NCBI GenBank assembly: GCA_024276605.1
Contig: JAJRWX010000098.1
Location: forward strand, 11,113-75,112
DNA: 64,000 nucleotides
Source: Planctomycetota bacterium
Lineage (GTDB): Bacteria > Planctomycetota > Phycisphaerae > UBA1845
Reading direction: 5' to 3'
Shown: piece after piece, positions 2,940 through 22,834 of the stretch
Numbering within the stretch: position 1 is the stretch's first letter
Layout: every line of letters begins with the position of its first letter
Position numbers and translations under genes: made by a program
Notes under the pieces: generated by a model
What the model saw: only the letters and a program-made list of their open reading frames with translations
Database searches by the model: none
What the model was told of the DNA's origin: nothing

Positions 2940-2941
2940 CC

Positions 2942-5945: not shown

Positions 5946-8188
5946 AGCGGTTGCATTTATTATTTCCATATCTGCTATTGGGGGTTTTAACCTCAGCTGT
6001 TGTGTATACCAATATTGGCACGCATGATAGCAGTCCCATGCAGGTAGACGATCGCACCGCAGTATGTCAACCGTGTGGCATGACTGTGGATACTCATTCG
6101 GCCATACGATCAGATCATGCCGGCACGATACGATATTATTGTAGCGAGCGTTGTCGAGATCGTGTGATGCCTGCGGTGGGATATGTGTCCGCCTCGCCTT
6201 CTAGCAGGCGGTTTGTCGATATCGTTTGCCACATGGAAGTGAATCGTGGATGGGGTATCCATACCGAGTATGATGGGCGTCGATATTATTTTTGCACAAC
6301 GCAATGTCGTACGCAGTTTGAGGCGGAGCCGGTGAAATACTTGACGGCTTCATGCCTAGTGTGTGAAAGTCCACTTGGGGATCAACCAACTTTTCCCGCT
6401 ACATATCTTGGCCATACGTATCAGCTTTGTAGCCAATCCCATCGGGCGGAGTTTAAGCAAGACCCCGCTTCGTTTTTTATGCACACCATGTGGGGGATTC
6501 CTTCGTGGTTATACTATGCGTCGATTGCGCTTGTGCTGATCGTCAGCTTCGGAGTGTTTGATTGGTTGAGTCGAAAAACAACGACGAAGATACCTTCGTC
6601 CGTTGAAACACAATCTAGAAAAACCATTCAATTCTCCGGCGAACAAGTCAAAGGCGAAGGCGAGCGTATGGCTGTATGCGGCGGACTTGGACTATCGCCG
6701 GCTTCTGCCATAAGCCTGCAACTACCTATACTGTCGTCACCGGCGATGGGAGTTAGTCGTTCCTTTCATCAATCGGCTGACCGTTTCGATTTGTTATCCA
6801 TCTCCTGGATTAAGGTAGCGATTCGATCGCGTATATTCAGGTTTTGCTGCCAAGTTATTTTTGTTGTTTTTTTTCTCCTCATCATTGCAGCCGGGTTATT
6901 CGGCAATCAAAATCCAGCGCTCAATATTGCCCCGATTGTTACATGGACCATATGGTGGGCGTTGTTAATTGTGCTGATTATGTATGCCGGTAAGGCTTGG
7001 TGTTATGTTTGTCCATGGGATGCAATCGCCGGCTGGATTGAGAAACTTTCGTTTTGGAAAAAATCTCAAGATGGGTTAAGCCTGAATTTGAAATGGCCGC
7101 GCGTAATAAGAAACATCGTCATAGCGACGATTCTATTTGTTGGGTTGACATGGATCGAACTGGGATTCGGTGTCACGATGAAACCGCGTATCACAGCATA
7201 TTTAGCCCTGGCTATGTTGTTGATGACCGTGGTATCCGCTTTGTTATTTGATCGCAAATCATTTTGCCGCTATGGATGCCTCGTGGGACGGGTCAGTGGC
7301 TTATATGCATTGTTTGCTGGTGTCGAGGTGCGATCGAAACAAAACAGCGTGTGCAAATCATGCCATACGAAAGAATGTGTCACGGGTAGTGAGAGCGCGT
7401 ACGGATGTCCGACATTTCTTTATCCCGGAAAACTTGAAAGCAACACCTATTGCATTCAGTGTATGGAATGTGTGCAAGCTTGTCCGCATGACAATCTCGC
7501 TCTAAATGTGAGGCCTTGGGGTAGCGATCTGGAGAACGAGGGTAAACCAAGGGCGGATGAAGCGTACCTCGCGCTGCTAATGCTTACCCTGGCAGCGTTT
7601 CATGGATTAACCATGACGCCGGTTTGGCAGCAACTCATTGATGCAATTCGGGAAAGCGTGAATGTCGGGCGCATACTCGGATTTAGCCTTGGTATGGCCC
7701 TGTTAACCGTTGGCCCAATTGTGATATATGCGGTGCTGGTAGGTATTTCCAAATCATTTGGTGATGCCCATACCATAAAGTCATTTACGTATCGCGATTA
7801 TTTCATACGCTATGCTTACGCAATGTTACCCATTGCACTCTTTTATCATATTGCACATAACCTAGAGCACTTGCTCATGGAAGGCCCGAAAGTTCTGGCC
7901 ATCATTTCCGATCCGTTTGGTTGGCAGTGGAATTTGTTCGGAACCGCTGGCTGGGTCATACCACCAATGATCGCGCTGGACAAACTATGGATCGTACAAG
8001 TATTTCTGGTTTTAGTAGGGCATGTATATAGTCTATGGATTGCACAGAAAACTTCTTTACGACTATTTGGTTCGTCTAAAGCAGCGTTCCGTAGTCAGCT
8101 ACCTATGCTTGTGGGTATGATTGCCTTTAGCGTCTTTAGTCTGTGGTTACTCAAACAGCCGATGGAAATGCGAACATCGGCGATGTAA
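5942..8188 (+). CDS. Triple YHS/TRASH-domain membrane polyferredoxin (4Fe-4S_5 type)
   Basis: Three YHS-like repeats (PCGMTV...YYCSERC; VCHMEV...YYFCTTQC..F..EP.KY; VCESPL...YQLCSQSH..F..DP); multiple TM helices; GKAWCYVCPW, FCRYGC, CKSCHTKEC, CIQCMECVQACP. GTGA overlap with the previous gene. Confidence 0.8.
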   Translation: MKRLHLLFPYLLLGVLTSAVVYTNIGTHDSSPMQVDDRTAVCQPCGMTVDTHSAIRSDHAGTIRYYCSERCRDRVMPAVGYVSASPSSRRFVDIVCHMEVNRGWGIHTEYDGRRYYFCTTQCRTQFEAEPVKYLTASCLVCESPLGDQPTFPATYLGHTYQLCSQSHRAEFKQDPASFFMHTMWGIPSWLYYASIALVLIVSFGVFDWLSRKTTTKIPSSVETQSRKTIQFSGEQVKGEGERMAVCGGLGLSPASAISLQLPILSSPAMGVSRSFHQSADRFDLLSISWIKVAIRSRIFRFCCQVIFVVFFLLIIAAGLFGNQNPALNIAPIVTWTIWWALLIVLIMYAGKAWCYVCPWDAIAGWIEKLSFWKKSQDGLSLNLKWPRVIRNIVIATILFVGLTWIELGFGVTMKPRITAYLALAMLLMTVVSALLFDRKSFCRYGCLVGRVSGLYALFAGVEVRSKQNSVCKSCHTKECVTGSESAYGCPTFLYPGKLESNTYCIQCMECVQACPHDNLALNVRPWGSDLENEGKPRADEAYLALLMLTLAAFHGLTMTPVWQQLIDAIRESVNVGRILGFSLGMALLTVGPIVIYAVLVGISKSFGDAHTIKSFTYRDYFIRYAYAMLPIALFYHIAHNLEHLLMEGPKVLAIISDPFGWQWNLFGTAGWVIPPMIALDKLWIVQVFLVLVGHVYSLWIAQKTSLRLFGSSKAAFRSQLPMLVGMIAFSVFSLWLLKQPMEMRTSAM

Positions 8189-8200
8189 GGTGTTTTCTTC

Positions 8201-8830
8201 ATGACATGCACACGAAGAGAATTCTTTTCCAGGTTTAGTCGATCGCTCGTATCGGACGCGGTAGATTCACTACAAGCCGTCCGTAGCCGAGCGGGAATTT
8301 TCGACGTGCCAAAGGACACGCCACCCAAAGTTGAATTAGCGAAGTGGTTGCGTCCGCCTGGTGCACTACCCGAATCGCAGTTCCTTACGACATGTACCCA
8401 ATGTACGGATTGTCAGACCGCTTGTCCTTACGATGCCATAAGACGACTCGGACCAGAGTTTGGAAATAGCGCCGGTACCCCAGCAATCATTCCCAGCGAA
8501 TCCCCATGCTATCTTTGTGATGACATGCCGTGCATTAGTGTGTGTGAGCCGCTTGCGTTGCGACAAGTGGCACGAACGGCTGTCAGAATGGGGACAGCGG
8601 TGATAGACTTACCAACATGCTATCTGTCGCAGGGGCAGCCTTGCGACTATTGTGTGATGCGATGTCCCATACCATCGCAGGCTATTCATTTTGGTGAGGA
8701 TGGCCTGCCAACGATTTGCGAAGAGGGATGTGTAGGTTGTGGCGTGTGCGACTACATCTGCCCTGCTGACGCGATTACGATACACGCGCAACTTAGATCA
8801 GAAAAAAGAACGCTACTAAAGGAATCATAA
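8201..8830 (+). CDS. NapF/NapG-type polyferredoxin
   Basis: TRREFF N-terminus without a clear hydrophobic h-region; LRPPGA; CTQCTDCQTACP, CYLCDDMPCISVC, CDYCVMRCP, CVGCGVCDYICP. Confidence 0.85.
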   Translation: MTCTRREFFSRFSRSLVSDAVDSLQAVRSRAGIFDVPKDTPPKVELAKWLRPPGALPESQFLTTCTQCTDCQTACPYDAIRRLGPEFGNSAGTPAIIPSESPCYLCDDMPCISVCEPLALRQVARTAVRMGTAVIDLPTCYLSQGQPCDYCVMRCPIPSQAIHFGEDGLPTICEEGCVGCGVCDYICPADAITIHAQLRSEKRTLLKES

Positions 8831-8831
8831 C

Positions 8832-9410
8832 ATGATGCACCAAAGTGGAAATCCAAGCGCATCCGCGGAACTTCGAGAAGAACACCAGGTGATCTTGAGA
8901 GTTATTGACGTTCTCAAGAAACTCGTTGCCCGATCACGATCCGGTAACGGTTTTGAATCGGAGGCTTTCAAGCAGTGTGTCAGCTTTATCAAGTATTTCG
9001 CAGATGCTTGCCATCACGCAAAGGAAGAAGAATTATTTTTTCCAGTGCTCGAATCGCGTGGGATCCCTAAAGAAAACGGGCCGATTGGCATGATGCTTTA
9101 CGAACACACACTCGCACGCGGCTTTACGGCTGAGATGGCCCAAGCACTCGATGCGCATGACAAGGGTGATGCGGATGCCATCGAACAGTTCCTTCGTGCG
9201 GCTGAACAATATGCCGAACTTCTTACCGGGCATATCTTCAAAGAAGATAATGTCCTCTTCAACATGGGGGACCAGGCATTATCTCCACAGGATCACGAAT
9301 CTTTATGTTCGAAATACTGTGAAGTCGGTTGCAAATCGTTTGGCGGAAAGAAACGGGACGAACTCAAGCGCATGGCTGATGATTTGTGTGAAAAATGGAT
9401 GGGAGATTGA
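8832..9410 (+). CDS. Hemerythrin-like HHE cation-binding protein
   Basis: EEH...HHAKEEELFFP...EH...HIFKEDNVLF di-iron HHE pattern. Confidence 0.85.
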   Translation: MMHQSGNPSASAELREEHQVILRVIDVLKKLVARSRSGNGFESEAFKQCVSFIKYFADACHHAKEEELFFPVLESRGIPKENGPIGMMLYEHTLARGFTAEMAQALDAHDKGDADAIEQFLRAAEQYAELLTGHIFKEDNVLFNMGDQALSPQDHESLCSKYCEVGCKSFGGKKRDELKRMADDLCEKWMGD

Positions 9411-9440: not shown

Positions 9441-10601
9441 TTATCGTAGAGTGGATACCGCCGTAGCGAATATATCGGTAGCAAGGGCAACTTCTTCGTC
9501 GGTCGTAAAACGTCCTAGAGAAAAACGAATACTCCCAGCCATCTGCTCATCACTTCTTCCCATGGCTCCCAGAACATAACTGGGCTGGAGCGTGGCACTA
9601 GTACATGCAGAACTTGAAGACACAGCTACACTGGTAATATCTCGCATCAGCACCTCGCTATCCATTCCTTCAATACTGACGTTAAGTGTATTAGCTAGAC
9701 GTTGCATGGTACTACCATTGATGGTGATGCCATGTATGTGTGAATAAAGTTGGCGTTGCAGCTTGTCACGCAAACGGCGAATCCGTTTTTGCTCGTTGCT
9801 CATGTTAAGTCGGCAAAGCTCAACGGCTGCGCCCATACCGACAATACCCGGTACGTTCAGCGTACCAGACCGCAGACCGCGCTCGTGTCCACCGCCGTGA
9901 ATAATAGCCTCACAACGAACGCGCGGCTTGCGTCGACGCACGTAAAGCACGCCAACTCCCTTTGGACCGTACATTTTGTGAGCAGACATGGCCAATAAAT
10001 CAATGTCAAATGCTTCGACGTCGATTCGTTCTTTCCCGGCGGACTGTGTAGTGTCACTGAACAACAGGGCACCATGCTGCTTACATAGACGTCCTATTTT
10101 TTCAATGGGCTGAATCACGCCGGTTTCATTATTGGCGTGCATAACAGCGACGAGGACAGTTTGCTGAGTGATAGCCGCTTTGAGTTGTTGCAAGTCAATC
10201 AGACCATCGGCGTTGACCGGGAGATACGTTATGGACCAGCCTTTCCTTTCCAACCATTCGCACGTATCGAGCACGGCCTTGTGCTCCGTGCACACGGTAA
10301 CTATATGGCGACCATTATGGGCGTAGTAGGGCGATTCAGCTATCCCCTTTAGAGCCAGATTGACCGCCTCCGTCGCACCACTCGTGAAAAAAATCTCTCT
10401 TGGATCAGCTTCGATAAGTTTGGCTACCTGCTGTCGAGCAAGTTCAACGGCTTGAGCAGCTTCACATCCCAAACTATGATTTCGGCTGGCGGCGTTACCG
10501 AACTTTTCGATAAAGTAAGGTTTCATGGTTTCGAAAACGCGCGGGTCCAGCGGTGTTGTCGCGTTGTAGTCGAGATAGATGGGGGTGTTCAAGGGTATCA
10601 A
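9441..10601 (-). CDS. iscS: Cysteine desulfurase, IscS/NifS group
   Basis: IYLDYNATTP, GNAAS, EHKAV, NNETG, SAHKMYGPKG (PLP Lys), RSGTLNV, catalytic loop SSSSACTS; TTG start. Confidence 0.9.
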   Translation of the reverse strand: MIPLNTPIYLDYNATTPLDPRVFETMKPYFIEKFGNAASRNHSLGCEAAQAVELARQQVAKLIEADPREIFFTSGATEAVNLALKGIAESPYYAHNGRHIVTVCTEHKAVLDTCEWLERKGWSITYLPVNADGLIDLQQLKAAITQQTVLVAVMHANNETGVIQPIEKIGRLCKQHGALLFSDTTQSAGKERIDVEAFDIDLLAMSAHKMYGPKGVGVLYVRRRKPRVRCEAIIHGGGHERGLRSGTLNVPGIVGMGAAVELCRLNMSNEQKRIRRLRDKLQRQLYSHIHGITINGSTMQRLANTLNVSIEGMDSEVLMRDITSVAVSSSSACTSATLQPSYVLGAMGRSDEQMAGSIRFSLGRFTTDEEVALATDIFATAVSTLR

Positions 10602-10632
10602 TCACTATTCAAAACAGGTTTTTGCAACAGGC

Positions 10633-12531
10633 TCAGGATGTATGAACCACGCTTAACTCATGATTTCTTTTCAAGTAGTGCATCGCACATCCCAGGGCCG
10701 AGATGGTGAAGATAAGCGGATAAAGACGTTCCGTATACCATAGTTTGGCAAAATAGAGGCCGATGGGAGCCGGTTCGAACGTCGTGCCCTGGTCTGTATG
10801 TTCGATTAACCAGTCACAGCCTCGTTCAATGGCTACGCGCGTATAGTCGTCTGTCGATAAGTCCTGAGATTGGCATGATAAGGTTTCCACAGCTAGGGCA
10901 GTCTCCTCGATGGTGGACGGCGTGGAAACATCTCCGCCCCAACCACCATCAGCATGTTGACTAGTTAACATCCAGTGCAATCCACGCAATCGTGCTTTGT
11001 GCCATGATCGTTTTGTGTTTACTTCAATGAATAAATCCTCTGGAGCGCGTAGTACGCGCGATGTACCATAAATAAGATTGTGCTGCAGTTTGGCATATTG
11101 ATTGCCAAACCATAAAGGTATCCAAGTACCGTTGTCGCACTGCGTTGTTAATAAGTATCGCACAGCTTTTTCAGACGCACGATCAAGGTGTCTTTGATGC
11201 TTGAGGGACAGTAATGATCGCCATACGCGCCACGCGCGAAGACTATGGGCCGTCAAATCAGGACTGCTCTGATCAAACGGTAACTTTCCCCAGCCTCGAC
11301 AAAACGTAGGTATGCCACCGTCCTTATTTTGCAAATCCATTAACCATTGCACACCTCGCTTAACGGCTTTAGTTAAGTTATCGTCATCAGTCGAAATCGA
11401 CTGAGTGAGGGCTTTCAATGCAAGTAGTGCACCGGCTGTGTCGTCTGCGTCGGGAACACCGCCGCTGAGATTCGTCCAAGCCCATCCCCCTGGTGCAGCA
11501 TGTGTATAGGGATGTTCGGTCTGATATTGCTGATTCAACAGCCAATGACGCGTTGCATGCTGATTATTTCCACCTATGGTGCTCGTTAATTCGCCTTGCC
11601 CCGACAAGGCTTGAATCGACAGCGTAGTAACCCAAGTAGCCAGGTTAGTGTCTATAGGCCAACTACCATCTTCGCGGGCGGAGTTAACCAAGAACCCGAT
11701 AGCCTGCTTTGCCACAGGAGTGGCACTATGTCCAATCGACGCCAGGCTCATAAGCACAAACCCGGTCAATGGCGCTGCTTCTAAAAACCCCCCCGTATCA
11801 GGTTGGATCGTTTGCAGGACGCGCAGCGTCTTATTCTTTGTCATATATCGTAGCCATCGAGCAACGGGGTTCTTGGTCGGGCGATGATGATGGCGTGCTT
11901 GCCCGATGGCGATAAGTGCAGGTAGTGCATAACTTACGACGGGCAACCCCACCAAACGAAACCACTGATGAGGGCATGCCGCTAACTCAAAAGGCAACGC
12001 TCGAATATGTTGCCATGCACTAGTACCATCACCAAATCGACCAGACAGTGCGCACATCGTGAGTATAGGCACCGAAAAAGTGCGGTCCTTGCCATAAACC
12101 ATATCAATGGCCTGGGAGAGATCAGCTGCGGATAGACTCTTGGCTTGACTGAGCATCCAAGATTCAGCACGCTGCTCTGCATAACGCACATCTTGATCCG
12201 ATGGCGTTTTCATATGTAGCGCCGCCCAACAAAGCGTTGTTGTGCTGATATTGCTCGGGCTTTCAATGGTATCCCCCCAACCACCATCTTTGTTTTGATG
12301 CTTGATTAGCCAACTAAATCCATGCTGTATGAGCTTCCTAAGGGACGCACGATCTGAGGAATTGTCGTCGTGATGATGGCGACATACCAAAGAAAGAGCG
12401 CACACCGACGTGGCTGTAGATAGCGCGCTACTCGATAATTCTCCCGTCCAGTGGCAACGATCATCGCGCAGACTAAGCAGCCGTTGAGTCGCCGCCTCTA
12501 GAGTTTGTTCGATGTCTTGATAGTCTACCAT
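10633..12531 (-). CDS. Class II terpene cyclase, divergent squalene-hopene cyclase-like
   Basis: DxDD motif PDADDTA; QW-type repeats (QNKDGGWG, EDGSW, QNKDGG, QCDNGTW, QHADGGWG); 632 aa, consistent with a two-barrel size. Confidence 0.85.
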   Translation of the reverse strand: MVDYQDIEQTLEAATQRLLSLRDDRCHWTGELSSSALSTATSVCALSLVCRHHHDDNSSDRASLRKLIQHGFSWLIKHQNKDGGWGDTIESPSNISTTTLCWAALHMKTPSDQDVRYAEQRAESWMLSQAKSLSAADLSQAIDMVYGKDRTFSVPILTMCALSGRFGDGTSAWQHIRALPFELAACPHQWFRLVGLPVVSYALPALIAIGQARHHHRPTKNPVARWLRYMTKNKTLRVLQTIQPDTGGFLEAAPLTGFVLMSLASIGHSATPVAKQAIGFLVNSAREDGSWPIDTNLATWVTTLSIQALSGQGELTSTIGGNNQHATRHWLLNQQYQTEHPYTHAAPGGWAWTNLSGGVPDADDTAGALLALKALTQSISTDDDNLTKAVKRGVQWLMDLQNKDGGIPTFCRGWGKLPFDQSSPDLTAHSLRAWRVWRSLLSLKHQRHLDRASEKAVRYLLTTQCDNGTWIPLWFGNQYAKLQHNLIYGTSRVLRAPEDLFIEVNTKRSWHKARLRGLHWMLTSQHADGGWGGDVSTPSTIEETALAVETLSCQSQDLSTDDYTRVAIERGCDWLIEHTDQGTTFEPAPIGLYFAKLWYTERLYPLIFTISALGCAMHYLKRNHELSVVHTS

Positions 12532-12537
12532 GATGAT

Positions 12538-13419
12538 TTATAGGCTCAAATGCCCCAACGCTAATAATGCATAAAAGGTATACTCGCTATCGTGCATGTC
12601 GTCAGCCCAATGACCACAGAATGCCTGGCCGGTCCATAGAGAATCGACGAAGTCCAGGCATTTTTCTTTCAAATCATCAAACGCGATGTGCATACCCGCC
12701 AATGCGTGTAGTGCTGTCGCTGTTGATAATAGATCAGGCATAGGCGCACGAGGCGTAGCTTTGAACCCGCCTTCAAGATGACACTGCATGCGCAACCACG
12801 CACCAGCCTGTTCAGGGGCAGTCCCTGCAAGGTGCCTTAGTATCGTCACTGCAGCCGCTGTTGTCGTCGTTGTGCCTTCACGGGCACGCTTATCATTGGC
12901 AAACGCCCCGTCCTCGGTTTGCAATGCGTAAACACTTCGGCACACGCTTCGAGGATCAGGAAAGTCAATAGTGAGGTCTTGATGAGCACCCAGTGCGAGA
13001 AAACTATGATACACCGATCCGTGTGCAGCTTGAGCCGTAGCGTGATAACCCCCATCTTCGCTACGGAATTTTTCAATCTGTTGGATGATGGCCTCTCTTG
13101 TTGGTTCGTTCAAACCATCATGGCCAATCGCTGTCCAGCAGCGTGCTAGGCAACAAAGGTGTACGAAATCTAGCGTTTCACCTGCATTATATTGCAGTAG
13201 AAACTGGCGAACGCGATCAACCGGCGGCTGAGCTTGCATGGCGATCAACCCGTCCAGCGTGAACACCGTGTAATATAGATCGCTTTCACCGGCGCGGTTT
13301 TTTCCCCCGCCATCTTCGTTGATTTGACCTTGCAGGAATTCGACAACCCGATCGCCGGCTTCATGCAGCAGGTTCGGTGCGAGCCTGGCTACTTGCAGCA
13401 TTTCGAGCCTCAAACTCAC
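12538..13419 (-). CDS. Prenyltransferase/squalene-oxidase-repeat protein (single alpha/alpha barrel)
   Basis: Repeats QINEDGG...DLYYT, SEDGGY, QTEDGAF, EGGF...PDLLST, DSEYTFYALLAL. GTG start at 13419 preferred; ATG 13401 is an alternative. Overlaps the upstream gene. Confidence 0.75.
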   Translation of the reverse strand: MSLRLEMLQVARLAPNLLHEAGDRVVEFLQGQINEDGGGKNRAGESDLYYTVFTLDGLIAMQAQPPVDRVRQFLLQYNAGETLDFVHLCCLARCWTAIGHDGLNEPTREAIIQQIEKFRSEDGGYHATAQAAHGSVYHSFLALGAHQDLTIDFPDPRSVCRSVYALQTEDGAFANDKRAREGTTTTTAAAVTILRHLAGTAPEQAGAWLRMQCHLEGGFKATPRAPMPDLLSTATALHALAGMHIAFDDLKEKCLDFVDSLWTGQAFCGHWADDMHDSEYTFYALLALGHLSL

Positions 13420-15193
13420 TACAATACCCTTCGATGAGATTGTCGCCGAACATTTTTCCAATCACACGACGAAGCAGGCCTTTTAAGGTGGCGTTGGTCA
13501 GCGTACTCAACGAGCGAATCGCTTGCTCTGTATACGCCTCCTGCAATTCCTTCGCTTTTTGGATGACGCCTCTTTCCTGCAAAATAGTATCGAGCCGACT
13601 TCGTACCGTATCGTAATCGCATCGGCGCCTCCACAGGTTGGTGAGTAACGCCTTCTCTTGACCTATGGCAGCTCGTTTGAGTGCGATTGAAAGAACGATT
13701 GATGGCCGTAAATCACGCAGGTCGTGCGAATCACTCTCTCCGCTATAGTCTTCTAGGTCGTCGCGAATTTGGTAAGCAATTCCCAGCGACTCGGAGTAAG
13801 TGCGTAACACGTCATGAGTCTTTTGATCTGCGCCAGCCAAGTTGGCACCTAATTGCAGGGCGACCTCGAACGCCGGAGCGGTCTTTTGCCTGAATATATC
13901 AAGCACTTCGAGCGAAGACATCGGTCGAGGTTTACGCGTCCAACAAAGTTCCGCCCCTTGTCCGCGACTCAACGTCAAGTGGCCCTGTGCTGCCACGCGA
14001 AGCATCTGAACCTTGATGTCAGCTGCGATGTCCAATTCACCAATTAAGCGATAACCTTCGCCTAGTAAGAAGTCTCCGATGTTAAGTGCCACAGGCATGC
14101 CATATTCAACGTGCAACGCTTTGTCGCCGTAACGCTCATCATCGTCGTCTTCAATATCATCATGAATGAGCGACGCTTTGTGGAAGCACTCTACCGCTAC
14201 AGCTAATTTCTTCAACGTATCAGGAATATCGGGCTGATCTTTACAGTTATCTCCAGCCAGCGCCAGATAGACACATGTGGTCAGATAGGGTCGCCAACGC
14301 TTACCGGCACGGGCTAGCCAATGTTGAGCGATATGATAAGTATCGTCAGCAGGATCTCCCATGATACGTGCCAAAGACGCGGCATCAAACCAACTTTGCA
14401 CGTGCCCTTTAAGTTCATTAAGGTCCATGCGATAGGTTCGGTCATCCGATGTCAGATGAATAACATCCCATACCCAATCAAGATCGACCGATGTGTTGAC
14501 ACAATCATCCTGTAATAGTGGAATCGCCACGCCGGGAACGGCTGTCGCCTCCAAATGCGGAAAACATTTTTCCAAAACATTCAGACAACTCACGCCCACG
14601 ATGGCTTCAATTCGACCGGTCTCGATCATTTTTCGCACAATAGCTGACCCTTCAGCCACCAACACGGCATAGCCAAGGCGCTCGGCTTCAACGGTAAGAT
14701 CATGGAGCGAACATAATCCGCATTCCTTACATAATAAACCAAACTCATCAAACGGAGCCGGGCAGACTTCCTCAACCCGAAGACACTTGGGAACCAATAG
14801 CAAGCGGCGATCATAGGGGGTTTGTGCCAGCGTTTCTCGCCAAGCCGCGTTACTCACCAACACAGCCGTATAATCATCATATGCGGCGCTTACACCTGCC
14901 AGCTTTCGAACCTTCTCGGTGAGCTTACGCATATCATCCATGGATAAAGGCGGTAAGATTCCTTCAGTGTCCATGATCTCAGCCGCACATCGCTTGAGTT
15001 GATCGCGCACGTTTCGACTGTTGGGGATGTTCGATTGCGTCGTTCGCTCAGTTTGTTTAATCACACGCGGCGGTAGCGTGAGTAAAGGTAACTTGACCGG
15101 GTGTGTAGGTTGAATGGCTTCATCCATGCGCACAACCTGTTTCGTTGGCGCTACCGAAGACGTATCTAAATCATTGTGCCTGATCATACGCAT
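13361..15193 (-). CDS. DUF116-like Cys-rich domain fused to a trans-polyprenyl diphosphate synthase
   Basis: N-half RRLLLVPKCLR...CPA...CKECGLC...GVSC...DCVNT (DUF116-like); C-half GKRWRP, FARM HDDIEDDDDER, GQ, KT, SARM QIRDDLED; SD AAGGA upstream. Confidence 0.85.
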   Translation of the reverse strand: MRMIRHNDLDTSSVAPTKQVVRMDEAIQPTHPVKLPLLTLPPRVIKQTERTTQSNIPNSRNVRDQLKRCAAEIMDTEGILPPLSMDDMRKLTEKVRKLAGVSAAYDDYTAVLVSNAAWRETLAQTPYDRRLLLVPKCLRVEEVCPAPFDEFGLLCKECGLCSLHDLTVEAERLGYAVLVAEGSAIVRKMIETGRIEAIVGVSCLNVLEKCFPHLEATAVPGVAIPLLQDDCVNTSVDLDWVWDVIHLTSDDRTYRMDLNELKGHVQSWFDAASLARIMGDPADDTYHIAQHWLARAGKRWRPYLTTCVYLALAGDNCKDQPDIPDTLKKLAVAVECFHKASLIHDDIEDDDDERYGDKALHVEYGMPVALNIGDFLLGEGYRLIGELDIAADIKVQMLRVAAQGHLTLSRGQGAELCWTRKPRPMSSLEVLDIFRQKTAPAFEVALQLGANLAGADQKTHDVLRTYSESLGIAYQIRDDLEDYSGESDSHDLRDLRPSIVLSIALKRAAIGQEKALLTNLWRRRCDYDTVRSRLDTILQERGVIQKAKELQEAYTEQAIRSLSTLTNATLKGLLRRVIGKMFGDNLIEGYCSEFEARNAASSQARTEPAA

Positions 15194-15238
15194 TGTTCCT
15201 TATGATACACGCCTTTACTCACCCGTCATGTTTCCATG

Positions 15239-16435
15239 CTATGTATAGGCACCAAAGCCGAAAAACCAATGCTTTTTTGCGAATCGGTATAACCAGTGAT
15301 CTTCCGGTATTTCGTGACCTGGATTATGTTGACTGTTCAATGATTGCATCGTATCCAACTCAGCATACATCGATTTACGATCCGTGGTATCCGCCGCACC
15401 ATGTCGCTCACCCAATGCTTGAAGCAAGTCGGGTCGCTCCAACACAATACAGCCGCGCGTGGCCTTGGCTGCAGTCTTGCGAAAATCTTCAAGGTACGAA
15501 GACTCCGTAAGCGTTTTGTATATGTCGCCGTCGTTATCATCAATATGTTCAGTAGCCAATTGGATAATCGGGCAAGGTTCTACATGGCCCCAAGGCCCGA
15601 CATGATGACTTACCCCCGTAGCCGCCGGGCACAGTGCCTGTCCTTTATCATCCCAATAGGCATCCACAAAACCGATGGCTTTCTTCGATCGCATCTCCAC
15701 CGCAAAGCGGCGCACTTTCAACACCTGTTCAGGACGAAGCGCAAGCTCCGGAGCAGCGTCAGGCCCTACGGGACGGTAGGTATGATACCACATATAATGC
15801 ACGCCACGCTGAATAAGCGCATCCACCCACGCTTCATTGACCAAATCATCAATGTTCGTTTGGCATACGCTTGTCGCTACGCCGGTGATGATGCGATGAC
15901 GTATGCACGCATCGATACCCGCTAGCGTTTTGTTATAAACACCCAATCGACCACGCCGCTGATCGCTAACCAATTCCGTACCTTCTACACTAATCAGCGG
16001 GGTGGCATTACCAATGCGTCGCATCTGAGCGGCGACCTCATCGGTAATAAAATGACCGTTTGTAAAGATTTGAAAGTAGCAGTCAGGGTGAGCAGCCAGG
16101 ATGCGCATGAGATCAGGATGCATAAATGGCTCACCGCCCAAAATGCCGAAAAAACTGTTTCCGTGTTTCTTGGCGTTTGTTATGAGCTTGTCCATCTGCT
16201 CGAAGGTAATGATTGACTGTGGCGATGCAACATCAATCCAGCATCCCGTACATCTAAGGTTACAGCTATTAGTGATGGATATGTAGAGGAAGGGAGGGAA
16301 TGTCGTACCCTGTTTGAGTCGTTTCTTAAAGCGCTGTACGGAACGCATACCCTTATACCCAAAGTTATACGCAAACTTCCACAACAGACGAGCATCCGTA
16401 CTGCGAACCATGCGATAGCCAAGCTGTGCAATCAT
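15239..16435 (-). CDS. Radical SAM protein with SPASM/Twitch-like C-terminus
   Basis: CNLRCTGC motif, GGEPF, FTNG, CPA...GHVEPCP. Confidence 0.9.
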   Translation of the reverse strand: MIAQLGYRMVRSTDARLLWKFAYNFGYKGMRSVQRFKKRLKQGTTFPPFLYISITNSCNLRCTGCWIDVASPQSIITFEQMDKLITNAKKHGNSFFGILGGEPFMHPDLMRILAAHPDCYFQIFTNGHFITDEVAAQMRRIGNATPLISVEGTELVSDQRRGRLGVYNKTLAGIDACIRHRIITGVATSVCQTNIDDLVNEAWVDALIQRGVHYMWYHTYRPVGPDAAPELALRPEQVLKVRRFAVEMRSKKAIGFVDAYWDDKGQALCPAATGVSHHVGPWGHVEPCPIIQLATEHIDDNDGDIYKTLTESSYLEDFRKTAAKATRGCIVLERPDLLQALGERHGAADTTDRKSMYAELDTMQSLNSQHNPGHEIPEDHWLYRFAKKHWFFGFGAYT

Positions 16436-16466
16436 AAGATGAACATGACTCCCATGCGTAACGCTT

Positions 16467-17366
16467 TCATATGCCCCAATCCTGCGGCGAGGACGTCGTA
16501 CGCTTATCCTGAACTGTCTGCGATCTCGCTTGACGATTTAATGCTTTAGCCTTGGCCCGTTCCGCGCGTTCTTGAATATCGCCCACCGACGGAAGCGACA
16601 TCAACACCTCATTAGGGATGTCTAATTCCCCCTGTAATTTTTTCAGACAGCGCTTTCTTTCCAGCAAGGCTTTTGATTCATCACGTTCCGTAGAAAAACG
16701 TTTTCGCGCATCACTTTGACGGTTGCGGAGCGCCGCGTAAATATCACCACCAAGCAGCGCCGATACGTCTACCTTCATGGCTTCCCGTTGAATGTCGGAC
16801 TCGCGCACCACATCACCGTTGATCGGCCCCTTGCTATATTTAGGGAAAAGAATAGCCACTTCCGGGCAAACACGGGAGCAAGCCGGACAATCCGTTTTAC
16901 ATTTTTCCTGATGCTGTACCGTGATTTGTTCCTGGCTATCGACGGCATATACATCGAACAGGCAAAAGCTTAAACACTGCATACAATTTGTGCATCGATC
17001 AAAATCGATCACAGGGAACCAAGGTTTCCAACCACCCGGCGACGTCGTCCCCATTTGCTCAGCGGTCGCTTCGACCTTACGAACGACTGCTTCAGTAGAA
17101 AGCCCCGTAACATCTTCAATGACAACCTGTGCATCATCCGCTATATCCGATGCTTGCGAAGTAGTCTTTCCGATAAATTTTCCAAGTACGAGTAGCGCCT
17201 GGCTATGATTCTCACGAACATGCCCGCGCCCATTAGCGCAGGTGACGTCGTATCCATTAGATAGTAGCGTAGTAACGATATCGAGCCGCTCACTATCGGC
17301 GAATGCAGCGCTGTCAGCCCCCTCATAAAGGACGACGCGCAGTGATGTGTTGCCATGACCGATCAT
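16467..17366 (-). CDS. 4Fe-4S dicluster ferredoxin-domain protein
   Basis: CTNCMQCLSFC and CKTDCPACSRVCP; charged helical C-terminus; 4-nt overlap with the upstream gene. Confidence 0.85.
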   Translation of the reverse strand: MIGHGNTSLRVVLYEGADSAAFADSERLDIVTTLLSNGYDVTCANGRGHVRENHSQALLVLGKFIGKTTSQASDIADDAQVVIEDVTGLSTEAVVRKVEATAEQMGTTSPGGWKPWFPVIDFDRCTNCMQCLSFCLFDVYAVDSQEQITVQHQEKCKTDCPACSRVCPEVAILFPKYSKGPINGDVVRESDIQREAMKVDVSALLGGDIYAALRNRQSDARKRFSTERDESKALLERKRCLKKLQGELDIPNEVLMSLPSVGDIQERAERAKAKALNRQARSQTVQDKRTTSSPQDWGI

Positions 17367-17734
17367 GTAGCGACGCCTTTATTCAGCGGTCGGCCTTCCA
17401 GTAGTAGGGGAACAATCTCATCCGCACGCTGCTCACGCATATTCAGTATATGATGAGTACCATCAGACAGCGAAGCATCGGCAGCGTGGAACAACCACTT
17501 AACCGCTCGTGGAAAACATGCTGCAATTTTCAAATCGCCGGACATAGCCAACTCTTTCAGCGCGGGATCTTTTCGAGATGACATCCGACAGAGATCAGCA
17601 AAAGCATCGAACGCGATACCCGATGCCGTGAGTTCGCGTAGCACGTGCTGCTTGGTTTCTTCCGGCACGACCTTGGCATAAGTGCAGTTGCAATAAACCA
17701 CGCGGAGGTTGGTAGGTGATTGGGTCTGGTTCAT
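17363..17734 (-). CDS. Small Cys-motif protein resembling the N-terminal domain of heterodisulfide reductase subunit A
   Basis: VVYCNC...DLC...IAACFPR...LF...ILNMRE parallels the HdrA N-terminal pattern (VYVCHC...C...VAACSPR...F...ANIRE); ATG 17734 with AAGGA upstream. Confidence 0.6.
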   Translation of the reverse strand: MNQTQSPTNLRVVYCNCTYAKVVPEETKQHVLRELTASGIAFDAFADLCRMSSRKDPALKELAMSGDLKIAACFPRAVKWLFHAADASLSDGTHHILNMREQRADEIVPLLLEGRPLNKGVAT

Positions 17735-17777
17735 GCGAGAAGCTAAATCCTTATGATGAAACAACTAGCCGATCGAT

Positions 17778-18908
17778 CTACGACTTCACCGTCATCCGAT
17801 GCGTAGGCTCCGGCTTACCAGGTCGAAAATGTTCCAGGTGAACAATCTCAGTTGATACACCATGCCCGGCCCGAACACACGTATCCAAAGTTTGCATGGT
17901 CATGTCGCATAGCAGTTGCGGCTGAGCTTCAGCACGAAGATTTATTATTAGCTCGCCGCCGCCAATACGATCGTGTAGCGATTCTCGCAGGTCTACAGCT
18001 TCTTCACTACTGACCAAGCTAACCACCGACAGGTTACCCGTCTCGTCTCCGGCGTCCAGCGTCATCTTCAAATGAGCGATCTCAATATCAAGGTCTGACA
18101 ACTTGCTACGAATCTCGTTAGCAAAAGCCACCAGCATCGTGTTGGCATCGAATAACTGCTTGCTGGCTAATCGGATGGTTCCGTTTAGCCAACCTAGCAG
18201 CGCCTCACCCTCTGCATACGTTTCGTAATCCACTTCCATCGTAGTTGCCGATACGGGTTCTCCCGACATCAGGCAGGCAAACCATTCATCCAATCCATCA
18301 CCCGATTTTGCTGAACATGTAAGCACCTTTGTATGGGGATACAATTTATGCAACGAAGTCGACAATTCTATTTGTAACGTCTCTGCAACATGATCGCATT
18401 TGTTGATAACGATGAGGTCGGCTTCTTCAAGTTGCTTGCGATACACATAGCAAACCTTGGAAGAAAAGGATCGACCCTTGGATAAGCCAAGAATTCTGGC
18501 ACACCGCTCGGGATCAACCACCACGCTTAATGGTGCTATAGTAAAACGATCACCATAAATACGTCGTAACGGATAACTAACCGTCGCGACAAGATCAGTA
18601 CAACTGCCGACAGGCTCAGCTATAAAAACATCCGGCTTGGCGGTTTCGCTTAATTTATTAGCCGCTTCAACCAGCGAATTGAACCGACAGCAGAAACACC
18701 CACCGGCGATTTCTTCCACGTCAAAGCCTTGCGAACGTAGTAGCGCCGTATCCACAAGTCCGGTACTCTGATCGTTGCTAATGAGGCCAATGCGCAGTCC
18801 CCGCTTGAGAAGATAACGGCCCAACTTGGCTACTGCCGTAGTTTTTCCCGCACCGAGAAAGCCGCCGATCATTACGTAACGCGCTTTCGTGTGATCGTGA
18901 TCGCTCAT
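17778..18908 (-). CDS. CobW/COG0523-like G3E metallochaperone GTPase
   Basis: GGFLGAGKTT Walker A, GGCFCC metal motif, AEPVG Walker B region, NKCD. Confidence 0.85.
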   Translation of the reverse strand: MSDHDHTKARYVMIGGFLGAGKTTAVAKLGRYLLKRGLRIGLISNDQSTGLVDTALLRSQGFDVEEIAGGCFCCRFNSLVEAANKLSETAKPDVFIAEPVGSCTDLVATVSYPLRRIYGDRFTIAPLSVVVDPERCARILGLSKGRSFSSKVCYVYRKQLEEADLIVINKCDHVAETLQIELSTSLHKLYPHTKVLTCSAKSGDGLDEWFACLMSGEPVSATTMEVDYETYAEGEALLGWLNGTIRLASKQLFDANTMLVAFANEIRSKLSDLDIEIAHLKMTLDAGDETGNLSVVSLVSSEEAVDLRESLHDRIGGGELIINLRAEAQPQLLCDMTMQTLDTCVRAGHGVSTEIVHLEHFRPGKPEPTHRMTVKS

Positions 18909-19354
18909 GCACTTTTGCCTAACATTTTGTCAATCGTACCGTCAAGCACGGCTACATATCCTTCTACATCCACACAATCATCCGGTGGCGTGCCCTCAAC
19001 AGCATACAGCCAGCCCTCTCCATAAGGGTCGCGCTGCACGGATTCAAGGTTATCATCTAACCCCGGATTTCCACCGGCAAAATTCCCCGCTAGCGGGCAA
19101 AACAAATCCGTCACCGCTTTGAAGCCTTCAATCCAGCCCACGACCATCCCCGCGTGAATCGGTGCTTGCAACTCTACCTCAAAATCAATCTCCACCGGCT
19201 CACCGAGAATCCGCGTGGCAAATTTCGTAAATCCTACATGCCATACGTTATCCGCTTGCTCCTTGAGCCAACAGTGACTTGGTGTGTACAAACGCTCACC
19301 CGGCAACCGCGTTGAAAACCGAGAACGTTTGTACTGTAGATATTCAACTTGCAT
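18905..19354 (-). CDS. Glycine-cleavage-H-like lipoyl-carrier protein (orphan)
   Basis: LYTPSHCW, VGFTKFA..LG, lipoyl-Lys motif IEGFKAV, GGNP.L, DPYGEGWL; no gcvT/gcvP in the window. Confidence 0.85.
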   Translation of the reverse strand: MQVEYLQYKRSRFSTRLPGERLYTPSHCWLKEQADNVWHVGFTKFATRILGEPVEIDFEVELQAPIHAGMVVGWIEGFKAVTDLFCPLAGNFAGGNPGLDDNLESVQRDPYGEGWLYAVEGTPPDDCVDVEGYVAVLDGTIDKMLGKSA

Positions 19355-19889: not shown

Positions 19890-22682
19890 TTATCTTTGAG
19901 ACCGAAGTCTAATCGTTCGTCTCACCTTGTCAGTGTCGACTGTTGCCTCGCGTTCTAAAACCTTGTAGGCACATCGATTGATCATCTTACGTTGTGTTCG
20001 CTGAATCCTGCCCTCCGCAATCCACTGGTTAGTAATGGCACTCACGCAGTCAACATAATCTTGAATGAAAAATGTAGGCGGAGGGCACGCTGAAACAACA
20101 TCCCCCATCGTGCAACCAAGATCATCAAGATCGTTAGGTACGCCACTATCACATGGCCCAATCACAATCGTACCAGCCATGTCAGAAGTGGGGCAATAAT
20201 CGCAATTGTTAGATAAGCCATCATCATCGTCATCGGGGGCATCCATGTGGAGTAGTACGGAGACGTTCGATGCACTATCGTCGGTGCGAAAACTATCGCC
20301 ATAGTTAGCCGTAGCCAAATCATTATCACCGTCGCCGTCTAGATCACCAATGGCTACTGAAATAGGTTTATCTCCCACACCATAAAGTTCATGGTTGCCA
20401 AAAGTTCCATCGCCAAGGTTGCGCAGGATTGATATGTTGGCTCCTTTGAAGTTGGTGACGACTAAATCAGGATCACCATCACCGTCCATGTCATCAATAG
20501 CCAAAGAGCTGGGGTCAAACCCTGCTTGGAAACTAACTTCGTTTGAAAACGTGCCACCTCCGAGGTTGAATAAGATGTCAACATTGTCAATGCCACTCCT
20601 AGGACGATGTACGAAGACCAAGTCAAGTTTCCCATCGTTGTTCAAATCGCCTATTACTACATCGTTTGAGCTTGATTTTATTCCTAAGAGTATAAAGTCT
20701 TCAAACGTGCCGTTCCCTCGGTTAAATAAGACCGACATGCTGCCATAATCGGCGCGGGTAGTCGACGCTATATCGACATCACCGTCGCCGTCTAAGTCGC
20801 CAATCGCAAGCTGTCTTGGTTCAAGTCCTGTGTCATACAGTACTTCTTTTGCGAACTTACCGTTCCCAAGGTTTAGCAATATAGATACGTTGTCGCGAAA
20901 CTGGTTAGCCACGGCCAAATCAAGGTCTTCGTCACCGTCAAGATCACCAATAACCACCGATATTGCCCTATTTCCCACCAAGTAGCTTTCCTCGTCTGCA
21001 AATGTGCCGTCGCCTTGATTAAACAATACTGATACGTTGTATTGGCTAGTTACAGCTATATCCAGATCATTGTCGCCGTCCAGGTCGCCGATGGCTAATC
21101 CTAAACCTTGACGTCCGGTATCGTATTCCACCTCATCGACATAAGTGCCGTCGCCATTATTGAGTAAGACCGAAACGCCACCATTAGCTAACGGATTTTC
21201 TATAGCTACGACTAAGTCGAGGTCGCCGTCGCCGTCCAAGTCGCCAATGGCAATAGATCGTGGTTGATCTCCTGCCCTGTAAGGCACATCACTATCAAAC
21301 AAATTGCCGTTGATATTACGTAGGATCGATACACTGTCGCCCACTAGGTTGGCTACAGCTACATCAAGATACCCATCACCGTCCAGATCATCCACGGCTA
21401 CAGAGTAGGGTGTCGCTCCTGCTTCGAAAGTGATGTCATCAAAGAAAGTGCCATCACCACGATTAAGTAAAACTGATATATTGTCCACGTCGAACCAAGC
21501 GTAACCATCGAAGTCTGTGTTCGCGTTGGCTACGATGAGGTCGGGCTTGCCATCGCTGTTCAAGTCGCCAATAGCTAGAGATACTGGTCTTATACCAGTG
21601 TCATAATGTACATCGATTGCGTAAGTTCCGTCGCCATGGTTGAGGTGGACCGCAACACTGTTCTTGTATTTGTTCACTACGGCAAAGTCTAGGTCCATGT
21701 CACCATCTAGGTCTCCAAAGATTATCGAATTAGGTGTCCAAAGGTCATTCCCAAAATATGTGGCGTCAACGAAGGTGCCGTCTCCATTGTTGAACAGTAT
21801 TGAGACATTGTCACTTCTGAAGTTTGCAGTCGCAAGATCAAAGTCCCCATCCCCATCGACATCGCCAATGACTATCGAAACCGGCCCATCTCCCGCTGCG
21901 TATAGTACGTGATCTGCGAAAGTTGCGTTACCATTATTAAGCAGTACCGAAATGTTATCACCAACGGCATTGGCCACTGCGAGATCGAGATCACCATCAC
22001 CGTCCAGGTCTCCTACGGCTATCGACCAAGGGTGATCCCCTCCCTCAATAAAAACATTTTCGTCGAACGTGCCATCGCCGCGATTAAGAAGCAAAGATAT
22101 GCCCTCGGTATTATATTTATTGTGTTGGTTAGCGACGACCAAATCCAGATCACCGTCACCATCGAGGTCGCCAATGGCCACAGATCGTGGACGATCGCCA
22201 ACTGCGTATTGAACATCGTCAGTGAATGTGCCATCTCCACGGCTGAGTAGAACTGAAATATTGCCGCCTTGGGGTGGATAATCGTCATAAGAGTAATTCA
22301 ATACTACCATGTCAATCGCACCGTCGTCATTTAGGTCGCCAGTTGCTACAGCTAAAGGCTGATCTCCCGTCAAGAATTCCGGGTTGGAAAATAGTGGACC
22401 TAGCGTAACGCCACAGGGTTGCTGAGATACAGCAAGATCACGAAAATCAACTTCGCTGCTACGATCATAATTGACAAGCATAGGATCAGAACTCACTTGC
22501 ACGTTACATGAACTTGATAAACATTCGTCTAAGGACAAATGTGTTGAGTAGTGCAGCGTAGCATCAACGTTTAGATTGCCACGAATGCTTGGTGCAACCG
22601 GAAGCCGCCCATCAGCTGCAAAAGAGTTGGAGAACATCATGACGGTGAGAATCGATAAGAGGGACCATCCTTGTCTTTGCAT
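19890..22682 (-). CDS. Secreted FG-GAP/VCBS-repeat beta-propeller protein (14 repeats) with Cys-rich C-terminus
   Basis: Signal peptide MQRQGWSLLSILTVMMFSNSFA; 14 copies of (G/D)D(L/V/M)(D/N)xDxxxD; DDDDDGLSNNCDYCP thrombospondin-type-3-like motif; SD GGAG at 22694-22691. Confidence 0.85.
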   Translation of the reverse strand: MQRQGWSLLSILTVMMFSNSFAADGRLPVAPSIRGNLNVDATLHYSTHLSLDECLSSSCNVQVSSDPMLVNYDRSSEVDFRDLAVSQQPCGVTLGPLFSNPEFLTGDQPLAVATGDLNDDGAIDMVVLNYSYDDYPPQGGNISVLLSRGDGTFTDDVQYAVGDRPRSVAIGDLDGDGDLDLVVANQHNKYNTEGISLLLNRGDGTFDENVFIEGGDHPWSIAVGDLDGDGDLDLAVANAVGDNISVLLNNGNATFADHVLYAAGDGPVSIVIGDVDGDGDFDLATANFRSDNVSILFNNGDGTFVDATYFGNDLWTPNSIIFGDLDGDMDLDFAVVNKYKNSVAVHLNHGDGTYAIDVHYDTGIRPVSLAIGDLNSDGKPDLIVANANTDFDGYAWFDVDNISVLLNRGDGTFFDDITFEAGATPYSVAVDDLDGDGYLDVAVANLVGDSVSILRNINGNLFDSDVPYRAGDQPRSIAIGDLDGDGDLDLVVAIENPLANGGVSVLLNNGDGTYVDEVEYDTGRQGLGLAIGDLDGDNDLDIAVTSQYNVSVLFNQGDGTFADEESYLVGNRAISVVIGDLDGDEDLDLAVANQFRDNVSILLNLGNGKFAKEVLYDTGLEPRQLAIGDLDGDGDVDIASTTRADYGSMSVLFNRGNGTFEDFILLGIKSSSNDVVIGDLNNDGKLDLVFVHRPRSGIDNVDILFNLGGGTFSNEVSFQAGFDPSSLAIDDMDGDGDPDLVVTNFKGANISILRNLGDGTFGNHELYGVGDKPISVAIGDLDGDGDNDLATANYGDSFRTDDSASNVSVLLHMDAPDDDDDGLSNNCDYCPTSDMAGTIVIGPCDSGVPNDLDDLGCTMGDVVSACPPPTFFIQDYVDCVSAITNQWIAEGRIQRTQRKMINRCAYKVLEREATVDTDKVRRTIRLRSQR

Positions 22683-22834
22683 TACTACGCCTCCCAAAAT
22701 ATTCTTCTCAACATTGAATTGAAGATAACCCCTGGCGGAGTTTAACCGAGTGAGGCCATCATACTGAGCGGCATTGTAACATACGACGTATAGTCATTTC
22801 AAGGGAAAGTGGGCAAAATTCAGATTGCAGAACC

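Follow-up and report, generated by a model that had tools for sequence, protein, structure and literature searches.

What does a bacterium make with an operon that joins the assembly and cyclization of a prenyl chain to a radical S-adenosylmethionine (SAM) enzyme, iron-sulfur (Fe-S) proteins, a lipoyl-type carrier and a cysteine desulfurase? Such an operon occupies positions 9441-19354 of a 64,000-nucleotide (nt) stretch of DNA from a Planctomycetota bacterium (Phycisphaerae, UBA1845; GenBank assembly GCA_024276605.1, contig JAJRWX010000098.1, positions 11,113 to 75,112), hereafter the window, in which all coordinates are counted. An initial annotation of this DNA distinguished the system from hopanoid (hpn) clusters and offered three explanations: a replacement route to squalene or another polyprenyl, a sulfur-containing cyclic terpenoid or cofactor, and a prosthetic group built on the carrier lysine. 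The operon system is real and conserved, and the literature searched, in which few subscription papers were covered, holds no description of it. Its nine genes are better read as a core of six and an aerobic accessory module of three (carrier, CobW-type GTPase and IscS). In the explanation that we prefer, at a probability of about 0.6, the core would make a cyclic isoprenoid from its own prenyl chain, not from squalene, and the three-gene add-on would maintain the Fe-S clusters of the core, almost only in oxygen-respiring hosts.

Organization and conservation of the operon

Open reading frame (ORF) positions and profile matches confirmed nine coupled genes on the minus strand, transcribed in the following order:

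18905..19354 (-): GcvH-like lipoyl-type carrier (PF01597); accessory, tracks aerobic respiration
17778..18908 (-): CobW/COG0523-type GTPase with CxCC motif (PF02492); accessory
17363..17764 (-): small four-Cys domain, weakly HdrA-N-like, four invariant Cys; core; ATG at 17734 as alternative start
16467..17366 (-): 2x[4Fe-4S] ferredoxin (two Fer4 motifs) with an N-terminal Cys-less copy of the small Cys domain; core
15239..16435 (-): radical SAM enzyme (Radical_SAM) with twitch-type C-terminal Cys; core slot
13361..15193 (-): Cys-rich DUF116 fused to a trans-isoprenyl diphosphate synthase with an altered loop after the first aspartate-rich motif (FARM); core
12538..13419 (-): single alpha-alpha barrel of protein-prenyltransferase-beta fold (Prenyltrans and model); core
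10633..12531 (-): two-domain class II cyclase, DADD at 361-364 (SQHop_cyclase N and C); core
9441..10601 (-): IscS-type cysteine desulfurase, operon-bound copy (NF010611); accessory

The intergenic gaps along the operon are -4, 13, -4, 31, 45, -59, 6 and 31 nt. The start codon of the barrel gene is most likely the GTG at 13419, where the conserved N-terminus of the family begins; with this start, the gene overlaps the synthase gene by 59 nt (13361-13419). An overlap of 38-80 nt was present in 33 of the 41 measured loci including the window (59 nt in 12 and 68 nt in 14), and residues of the synthase C-terminus and the barrel N-terminus are conserved in both frames there. A promoter and terminator scan gave fewer sites than in shuffled sequences.

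To define the conserved neighborhood, GTDB was scanned with the DUF116-synthase, and the best 80 of 582 confirmed relatives were kept as related loci; extrapolated to the whole database, the search points to about 2100 such stretches. The 80 loci come from Planctomycetota, Verrucomicrobiota, Acidobacteriota, Hydrogenedentota and Armatimonadota, the nearest carrying the titles Phycisphaerae and Planctomycetota. Many of them are cut by contig ends, and gene presence was judged by tblastn, which found the ferredoxin (66 loci), the small Cys protein (63) and the radical SAM enzyme (62) most often, followed by the barrel (57), CobW (50), the cyclase (49), the carrier (47) and IscS (37). The first eight genes keep the window order at 33 of the 80 loci, and thus the arrangement is not due to chance; this supports the original view of a conserved pathway linking prenyl-chain synthesis and cyclization to radical SAM and Fe-S proteins. 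IscS immediately follows the eight genes in 16 of these 33 loci and immediately precedes them in five. Beyond the nine genes, the only conserved neighbors are an alternative radical SAM enzyme (5 loci) and a pyrroloquinoline quinone (PQQ)-type propeller (15 of 81 loci). The operon is broken up or contig-cut mostly in Verrucomicrobiota, the radical SAM gene often being left next to the synthase; the broken or cut loci are L008, L017, L023, L026-L032, L040, L073, L074, L077 and L078.

Among 241 genomes drawn from the phylum Planctomycetota, 61 have the cyclase family: 31 that also have a close barrel orthologue (type I) and 30 others. All 31 genomes with the close barrel orthologue contain the cyclase. 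In 20 regions of 17 of the 30 other genomes the genes stand in a different order, here called type II, which runs from the ferredoxin through radical SAM, cyclase and synthase to the barrel. These regions (L096-L115) have a divergent barrel and carrier, and their layout is often dispersed; L038 and L042 hold a type II-like radical SAM gene inside the type I gene order.

One radical SAM slot with two kinds of occupant

The radical SAM enzyme of the window (Radical_SAM, E 3e-15; CxxxCxxC at 58-65) contains C269, C288 and C329, which are invariant in 59 of 59 sequences. On the HpnH model it reaches 39, far from the cut-off of 225; TIGR00510 (LipA) was not among its best 25 families, and it lacks the CX4CX5C spacing that we take to be the LipA Cys motif. 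An atlas search with this enzyme returned only clusters from the Planctomycetota-Verrucomicrobiota-Chlamydiota (PVC) group and one methanogen-rich cluster, and no blastp match below E 0.5 was obtained against eight archaeal Grs-family members.

The alternative occupant of the slot, standing in place of the twitch enzyme, is a B12-binding-type radical SAM protein of 510-540 residues. In a set of 36 genomes (the 31 type I genomes and five from the loci), every genome has exactly one of these two unrelated slot enzymes, 25 the twitch type and 11 the Grs-like type; three additionally carry a distant paralogue of the other radical SAM kind. The swap recurs in type II, with six Grs-like and five twitch loci, and five of five further genomes have the twitch type elsewhere (G231 was left out of this follow-up). 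Most relatives of the Grs-like enzyme are archaeal. With Saccharolobus P0430 and P0422 it shares 27-30% identity along 88-97% of the length (E 1e-49 to 1e-57 for P0430); it also has weak methylthiotransferase-model matches (best E 4e-11), far under the cut-off. P0430 is a protein of S. islandicus REY15A with the same product name as grsA SiRe_1404 (PMC10465181) and is most likely this GrsA, an assignment by strain and product name with the accession link unconfirmed. In pairwise comparison with P0430 and P0422, the two reference proteins covered, the Grs-like enzyme P0001 falls within the cut-offs given for Grs homologues in the accessible part of Blum et al. (at least 70% coverage, at least 20% identity, E 1e-40 or better), which were set with other queries including those of S. 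acidocaldarius; it is thus a candidate member of the family. A named member of the Grs-like operon enzymes (P0016) comes from Candidatus Uabimicrobium amorphum, which might serve as a cultured host for lipid analysis.

According to the part of Garcia et al. available (PMC11214058), Grs proteins are radical SAM enzymes of the B12-binding kind, responsible for ring formation in isoprenoid chains; Gms, of the SPASM/twitch kind, links such chains to one another. By analogy, the simplest job for both occupants to share would be hydrogen abstraction and C-C bond formation on an isoprenoid; methylation or another radical step would also be compatible. The swap with a Grs relative thus speaks for radical chemistry at C-H and C-C bonds of an isoprenoid and not for sulfur insertion, and that a Grs-like enzyme can replace the radical SAM protein weakens both carrier-based explanations of the initial annotation.

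Prenyl-chain synthesis, the barrel and the Fe-S proteins

In the fusion protein, DUF116 covers residues 95-244 and polyprenyl_synt residues 286-531. Seven Cys of DUF116 are conserved at 99-100% in 75 sequences; no fold match for DUF116 was obtained from the Foldseek list, which matches to the synthase domain filled. The synthase part has the fold of a normal isoprenyl diphosphate synthase (template-modelling score to Foldseek targets 0.74-0.87), the Asp-rich motifs DDIED and DDLED, and the GKxxR motif (GKxxRP) for isopentenyl diphosphate (IPP) in 92 of 93 sequences. Its first DDxxD is preceded by KAS and followed by RY in 93 of 93 sequences. The usual RR pair after the first Asp motif is thus replaced by RY, the genome's two other synthases having RRG or RRK and two solved ones RRG. 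In other synthases the second Arg of this loop binds IPP. Small residues before the first Asp motif, such as those found here, point to a product of C20 or longer and suggest the same for the operon synthase. An entry named prenyltransferase Ord1 is among its closest solved relatives.

The barrel matches Prenyltrans (E 6e-12), and its AlphaFold2 model has a predicted local distance difference test score of 97.6. The modelled fold appears closer to the beta subunits of geranylgeranyltransferase (GGTase) and farnesyltransferase (FTase) (VIA Z 22.7-25.8) than to terpene cyclases (15-20), the best match being 1N4P_B (Z 25.8, root-mean-square deviation 2.9, 265 aligned). Against single-barrel class II cyclases, Z was 17.3 for MstE and 20.0 for 8PAJ, with the invariant acids present but unmapped. 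D47, D229, D277, E279 and several aromatics are invariant. The zinc triad (Asp-x-Cys and His), for which we assumed the ligand positions of protein prenyltransferases, is missing; by motif, D229-L-L231 and D277-x-E279-Y280 are invariant instead, and 14 of 14 type II barrels have the motif DxEYT.

The small four-Cys protein has no Pfam or NCBIfam match, and its four Cys are invariant in 29 of 29 sequences. Its alignment with four HdrA N-termini is colinear but weak (best 9.5 bits, hhalign P 0.007), and no HdrA match was found among PDB sequences. While the other family names given by the initial annotation were borne out by profile matches, the likeness to the HdrA N-terminus is faint. The ferredoxin has eight Cys invariant in 59 of 59 sequences, and its N-terminus is a Cys-less copy of the small Cys domain (hhalign probability 96%, E 1e-9). 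In five loci (L010, L020, L065, L067 and L071) the two proteins form one polypeptide, and the four tested genomes with this fused form lack both oxidase and carrier; the split form with its Cys-less duplicate may track aerobic life.

The cyclase and the squalene question

The cyclase matches both SQHop_cyclase domains (N and C) and has a two-domain fold. It scores 88.8 bits on the squalene-hopene cyclase (SHC) model TIGR01507, whose cut-off is 431. Its DADD (361-364) aligns with the DVDD of 1GSZ, and the corresponding His, Trp and Tyr of A. acidocaldarius SHC are likewise retained in it; DxDD is present in 17 of 17 type II cyclase sequences examined. Two short cyclase-C-domain matches (G000:C60:65580-66020 and C31:134971-135354) lie in ORFs of about 380-430 residues, possibly single-barrel proteins.

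The window's genome, which is 96% complete, contains no match to PF00494, the squalene/phytoene-synthase family, and no canonical SHC. With the low SHC score of the cyclase, this agrees with the earlier statements that squalene synthase and HpnC/D/E are missing and that the locus is not a hopanoid cluster. The proposed anti-correlation with hpnCDE or squalene synthase (SQS) was examined in 50 genomes of the 80 loci, picked for having the cyclase or most of the operon. PF00494 genes were present in 34 of them (two by weak matches, and with phytoene synthases included in the family) and absent from 16; canonical SHC was present in 11 of 51 operon genomes, all 11 of them PF00494-positive. The operon is therefore neither dependent on the hopanoid route nor an alternative to it, and we rejected it as a substitute for squalene synthase. 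Squalene synthesis by HpnCDE or SQS needs no oxygen.

Divergent 'SHC-like' cyclases of 'unknown function' that keep the catalytic residues have been described by Santana-Molina et al. 2020 and McShea et al. (PMC7306690, PMC12324236), in the parts of these papers at hand, from PVC bacteria and Acidobacteriota, where they adjoin a polyprenyl synthase. Its sister group consists of cyclases that act on head-to-tail polyprenyls (PMC12324236), a non-squalene precursor has been proposed for the clade, and SHC-bearing bacteria with no known squalene route exist (PMC7306690); a rate shift at the dimer surface has also been reported for cyclases (PMC12324236). The accessible part of bioRxiv 2025.07.29.667474 contains nothing on this clade. 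By range, catalytic residues and synthase neighbor, rather than by placement in a tree, the window cyclase fits the 'SHC-like' clade.

An accessory module that follows aerobic respiration

The carrier matches GCV_H (PF01597, E 4e-17) with 66 bits, below the NCBIfam GcvH cut-off of 116. Lys79 is invariant in 28 of 28 sequences, a Lys stands at the lipoyl position in 7 of 7 type II copies, and there is no invariant Cys pair as in LbpA. Since the genome has a canonical GcvH (C30), LipA (C102) and three genes of the ligase family at other sites, the carrier is a specialized paralogue. CobW (PF02492, E 4e-26) has C71, C73, C74 and C103 invariant in 48 of 48 sequences. IscS scores 526 bits on NF010611 (cut-off 548) and contains the pyridoxal phosphate Lys (SxHK) and the catalytic Cys loop, whose Cys motif is present in 35 of 37 sequences, the other two being truncated. 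The operon copies of IscS cluster across phyla in at least two operon clades, apart from the two other desulfurases of the window genome.

With the type I profile, the carrier was found in 20 of the 241 phylum genomes, all of them among the 31 type I genomes and all barrel-positive. In the 36-genome set, carrier and CobW were present in 21 of 21 genomes with heme-copper oxidase subunit I and in none of 15 without, the CobW orthologue occurring in the same 21 genomes as the carrier. The link spans both slot types, as G048 has a Grs-like enzyme with oxidase and carrier, and G173, G056, G057, G047 and G028 have the twitch enzyme with neither; it also holds within one family (G126 versus G173). 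For type II the pattern was predicted beforehand, and the carrier was found in 22 of 24 oxidase-positive and 0 of 6 oxidase-negative genomes. Pooled over both types, 43 of 45 core genomes with heme-copper oxidase have the carrier, compared with none of 21 without. A third set comprised 45 genomes reached via loci, of which three duplicate earlier ones and G024 was left out. All 41 carrier-positive genomes had COX1 (40, two at a looser threshold) or COX2 alone (one); the three carrier-less genomes were two that lack oxidase and G005.

Of the phylum genomes, 11 of the 31 with type I and 8 of the 30 with type II have the core but not the carrier, and no IscS was seen in 11 carrier-less loci, where only the loci were searched. 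Because the core persists without the carrier, both the sulfur product and the prosthetic group on the carrier Lys lose ground. Carrier, CobW and IscS are more likely to serve aerobic Fe-S upkeep (cluster assembly or repair), the carrier not being the carrier of the product, since the core, with several predicted Fe-S clusters, is joined only in aerobes by a source of sulfur, a thiol carrier and a GTPase with a CxCC motif. GcvH-like proteins have been linked to oxidative-stress defence in the part of PMC12440151 available, and to oxidative stress in that of 10.64898/2026.10.01.755906.

A proposed pathway and its alternatives

From the gene content, the motifs, two model folds, the either/or slot and the oxidase co-occurrence, which are all observed, we infer every reaction of the pathway, whose step order is not fixed. 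The DUF116-synthase would make a head-to-tail prenyl diphosphate of at least C20, or join the chain to an acceptor other than IPP; the barrel might move the chain from its diphosphate onto a head group or a second chain. The DxDD cyclase would protonate the terminal alkene and form rings, and the radical SAM enzyme would abstract a hydrogen from the chain and make another C-C bond, either closing a ring or cross-linking; its electrons would arrive via the ferredoxin, the small Cys protein and possibly DUF116. In aerobes, IscS would give sulfur, the CobW-type GTPase would handle metal, and the presumably lipoylated carrier would act as a thiol reductant or relay for cluster repair. The pathway appears self-contained, because 16 of the 50 hosts and the window genome lack PF00494 and the cyclase accompanies every close barrel.

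Several points weigh against this explanation. The likeness of the small Cys domain to HdrA and the proposed role of the barrel are both weak. The solved relatives of the window twitch enzyme are distant (E 2e-11 or weaker), and it is likened to Gms by SPASM/twitch class rather than by sequence comparison. The Grs-like operon enzymes form a clade of their own, apart from Sulfolobales, in a tree of 109 sequences, and B12-type radical SAM proteins also include methylases. On the oxygen side, heme-copper oxidase is a proxy for life in air; G288, the complete genome G290 and G005, whose locus starts at a contig end, are oxidase-positive and carrier-less; and the very small Fisher values are overstated, the genomes being kin and mostly metagenome-assembled. 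An electron supply or a tailoring step peculiar to aerobes would account for the correlation as well.

Among the other explanations, an unlikely one is a small meroterpenoid or redox cofactor, in which the synthase or the barrel would transfer an aromatic or polar head group to a prenyl chain that is then cyclized. The Tyr in place of the canonical second Arg in all 93 synthases, the relationship to Ord1 and the nearness of the barrel to prenyltransferase beta subunits agree with it, but the IPP motif is kept in 92 of the 93, and near the operon there is no conserved head-group, transporter or client-enzyme gene, the PQQ-type propeller at 15 of 81 loci being the only gene that recurs there. 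Tail-to-tail coupling of two prenyl diphosphates by the Fe-S and radical proteins, giving squalene or a homologue and then a hopanoid-like lipid, we consider distinctly improbable. The hosts devoid of PF00494, the SHC-type catalytic residues of the cyclase and the SHC-bearing bacteria with no known squalene route (PMC7306690) favor it; it is opposed by the 34 of 50 hosts that have PF00494 (two weakly), the retention of the operon in all 11 genomes with canonical SHC, and a cyclase score of 89 against 431 bits. Cultured subdivision 6 Acidobacteria made no hopanoids, according to the part of PMC5462960 available, the comparison not extending to operon carriage in those strains.

A pathway in which IscS and the carrier deliver sulfur to a cyclic terpenoid or a lipoate-like cofactor ranks slightly lower still. 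In its favor are the operon-bound IscS, which sits first or last and falls in at least two operon clades, the invariant carrier Lys and the weak methylthiotransferase-model matches of the Grs-like enzyme. The carrier was not found in the 21 oxidase-less core genomes, nor IscS in the 11 carrier-less loci, although a housekeeping desulfurase could still give sulfur there; the radical SAM enzyme lacks what we take to be the LipA Cys pattern, and LipA itself lies elsewhere in the genome. Least probable by far is a prenyl-derived prosthetic group built on the carrier Lys by a prenyltransferase-type barrel. The barrel fold is nearest to protein prenyltransferases, and the carrier, with its invariant Lys, occurs only in barrel-positive genomes (20 of 20); against this stand the carrier-less cores of both types, the missing zinc Cys and His (at the presumed ligand positions) and the absence of an alpha subunit among the conserved neighbors.

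Comparison with known systems

The operon shares with the published 'SHC-like' clade the divergent two-domain cyclase and the neighboring polyprenyl synthase; the available parts of the two papers (PMC7306690, PMC12324236) name the synthase neighbor only, and the barrel, the Fe-S proteins, the slot swap and the oxygen-linked module come from this operon. Hopanoid clusters also combine a class II DxDD cyclase with a radical SAM gene (HpnH there), whereas the operon has no squalene synthase, a cyclase and a radical SAM enzyme below their cut-offs, and a true SHC alongside in 11 of 51 genomes. The Bacillus sporulenol route (HepS/HepT, YtpB, SqhC) resembles it in having a dedicated head-to-tail synthase and an SHC-type cyclase, and the epoxy-polyprenyl cyclases (Lon15, AtoE, Bra4, PlaT2) form the clade sister to the SHC-like clade (PMC12324236, in part). 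Neither a YtpB-type nor an epoxidase gene is among the conserved neighbors of the operon, and an oxygen-dependent epoxide is unlikely because the core occurs in genomes that lack oxidase.

With respect to the archaeal tetraether ring synthases GrsA/GrsB (PMC11214058 and bioRxiv 2022.08.15.504015, in the parts available), the alternative slot occupant is probably a full-length Grs-family homologue, and the window occupant is of the SPASM/twitch class, like Gms (PMC11214058). The Grs-like operon enzymes differ in their separate clade, the window enzyme is unrelated to Grs, and both stand in a bacterial terpenoid-cyclase context that has no tes or mss among the conserved neighbors. The carrier has the GcvH fold family and the invariant lipoyl-position Lys in common with LbpA of sHdr, GcvH-L of Staphylococcus and Hden_1299 beside OsmC, and like such proteins it is used outside glycine cleavage; two of the three have oxidative-stress links in the published portions available. 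The operon carrier differs in having no ligase, LipS, sirtuin, OsmC or sHdr gene among its conserved neighbors and in its partnership with a CobW-type GTPase and IscS. DUF116 (arCOG02078) was described with its CxxCxxC, its fusion to polyprenyl synthetase in some bacteria and a proposed electron-transfer role by Makarova et al. 2015 (PMC5898192); the operon protein shares the motif and the fusion, for which the published passage gives no pathway.

Neighboring genes and significance

A convergent operon on the plus strand (138-9410) encodes a molybdopterin oxidoreductase that resembles NapA but reaches none of the cut-offs, four Fe-S proteins of which three are NapG-like and one NapH-like, a membrane Fe-S protein with YHS repeats and a protein with a hemerythrin domain; it is not among the conserved neighbors of the terpenoid operon. 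Upstream of the latter, 535 nt away on the same strand, are:

19890-22697 (-): FG-GAP repeat protein
22835-24757 (-): probable membrane protein, unannotated
24666-25619 (-): aldo-keto reductase

The substrate of the SHC-like clade is described as an open question in the available parts of two papers (PMC7306690, PMC12324236), one that matters for how the cyclases of sterols and hopanoids arose and for the reading of fossil lipids. The comparison yields a minimal anaerobic set of five or six genes for expression, by which the orphan cyclase becomes testable, and it gives a chemical hint about its pathway, namely radical C-C formation on an isoprenoid. A separate testable idea is that the GcvH-like carrier, the CobW-type GTPase and IscS provide pathway-specific Fe-S upkeep in aerobes.

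A bolder extension of the preferred explanation, which we put forward tentatively and as speculation, is a widespread and ancient squalene-bypassing route to a polycyclic isoprenoid membrane lipid, in which an SHC-like cyclization of a head-to-tail polyprenyl would be followed by radical C-C ring formation or cross-linking of the archaeal-tetraether type, with the upkeep module letting an anaerobic pathway run in air. Orphan biomarkers of the geological record, for example the tricyclic terpanes, might derive from this product, a link that serves as a lead only. The source of these compounds is debated (PMC8605093, in part). Under the same proposal, many bacterial Grs homologues would act on this lipid and not on branched tetraethers, and the comparison already carries the warning that bacterial Grs homologues need not mark the cyclization of branched glycerol dialkyl glycerol tetraethers.

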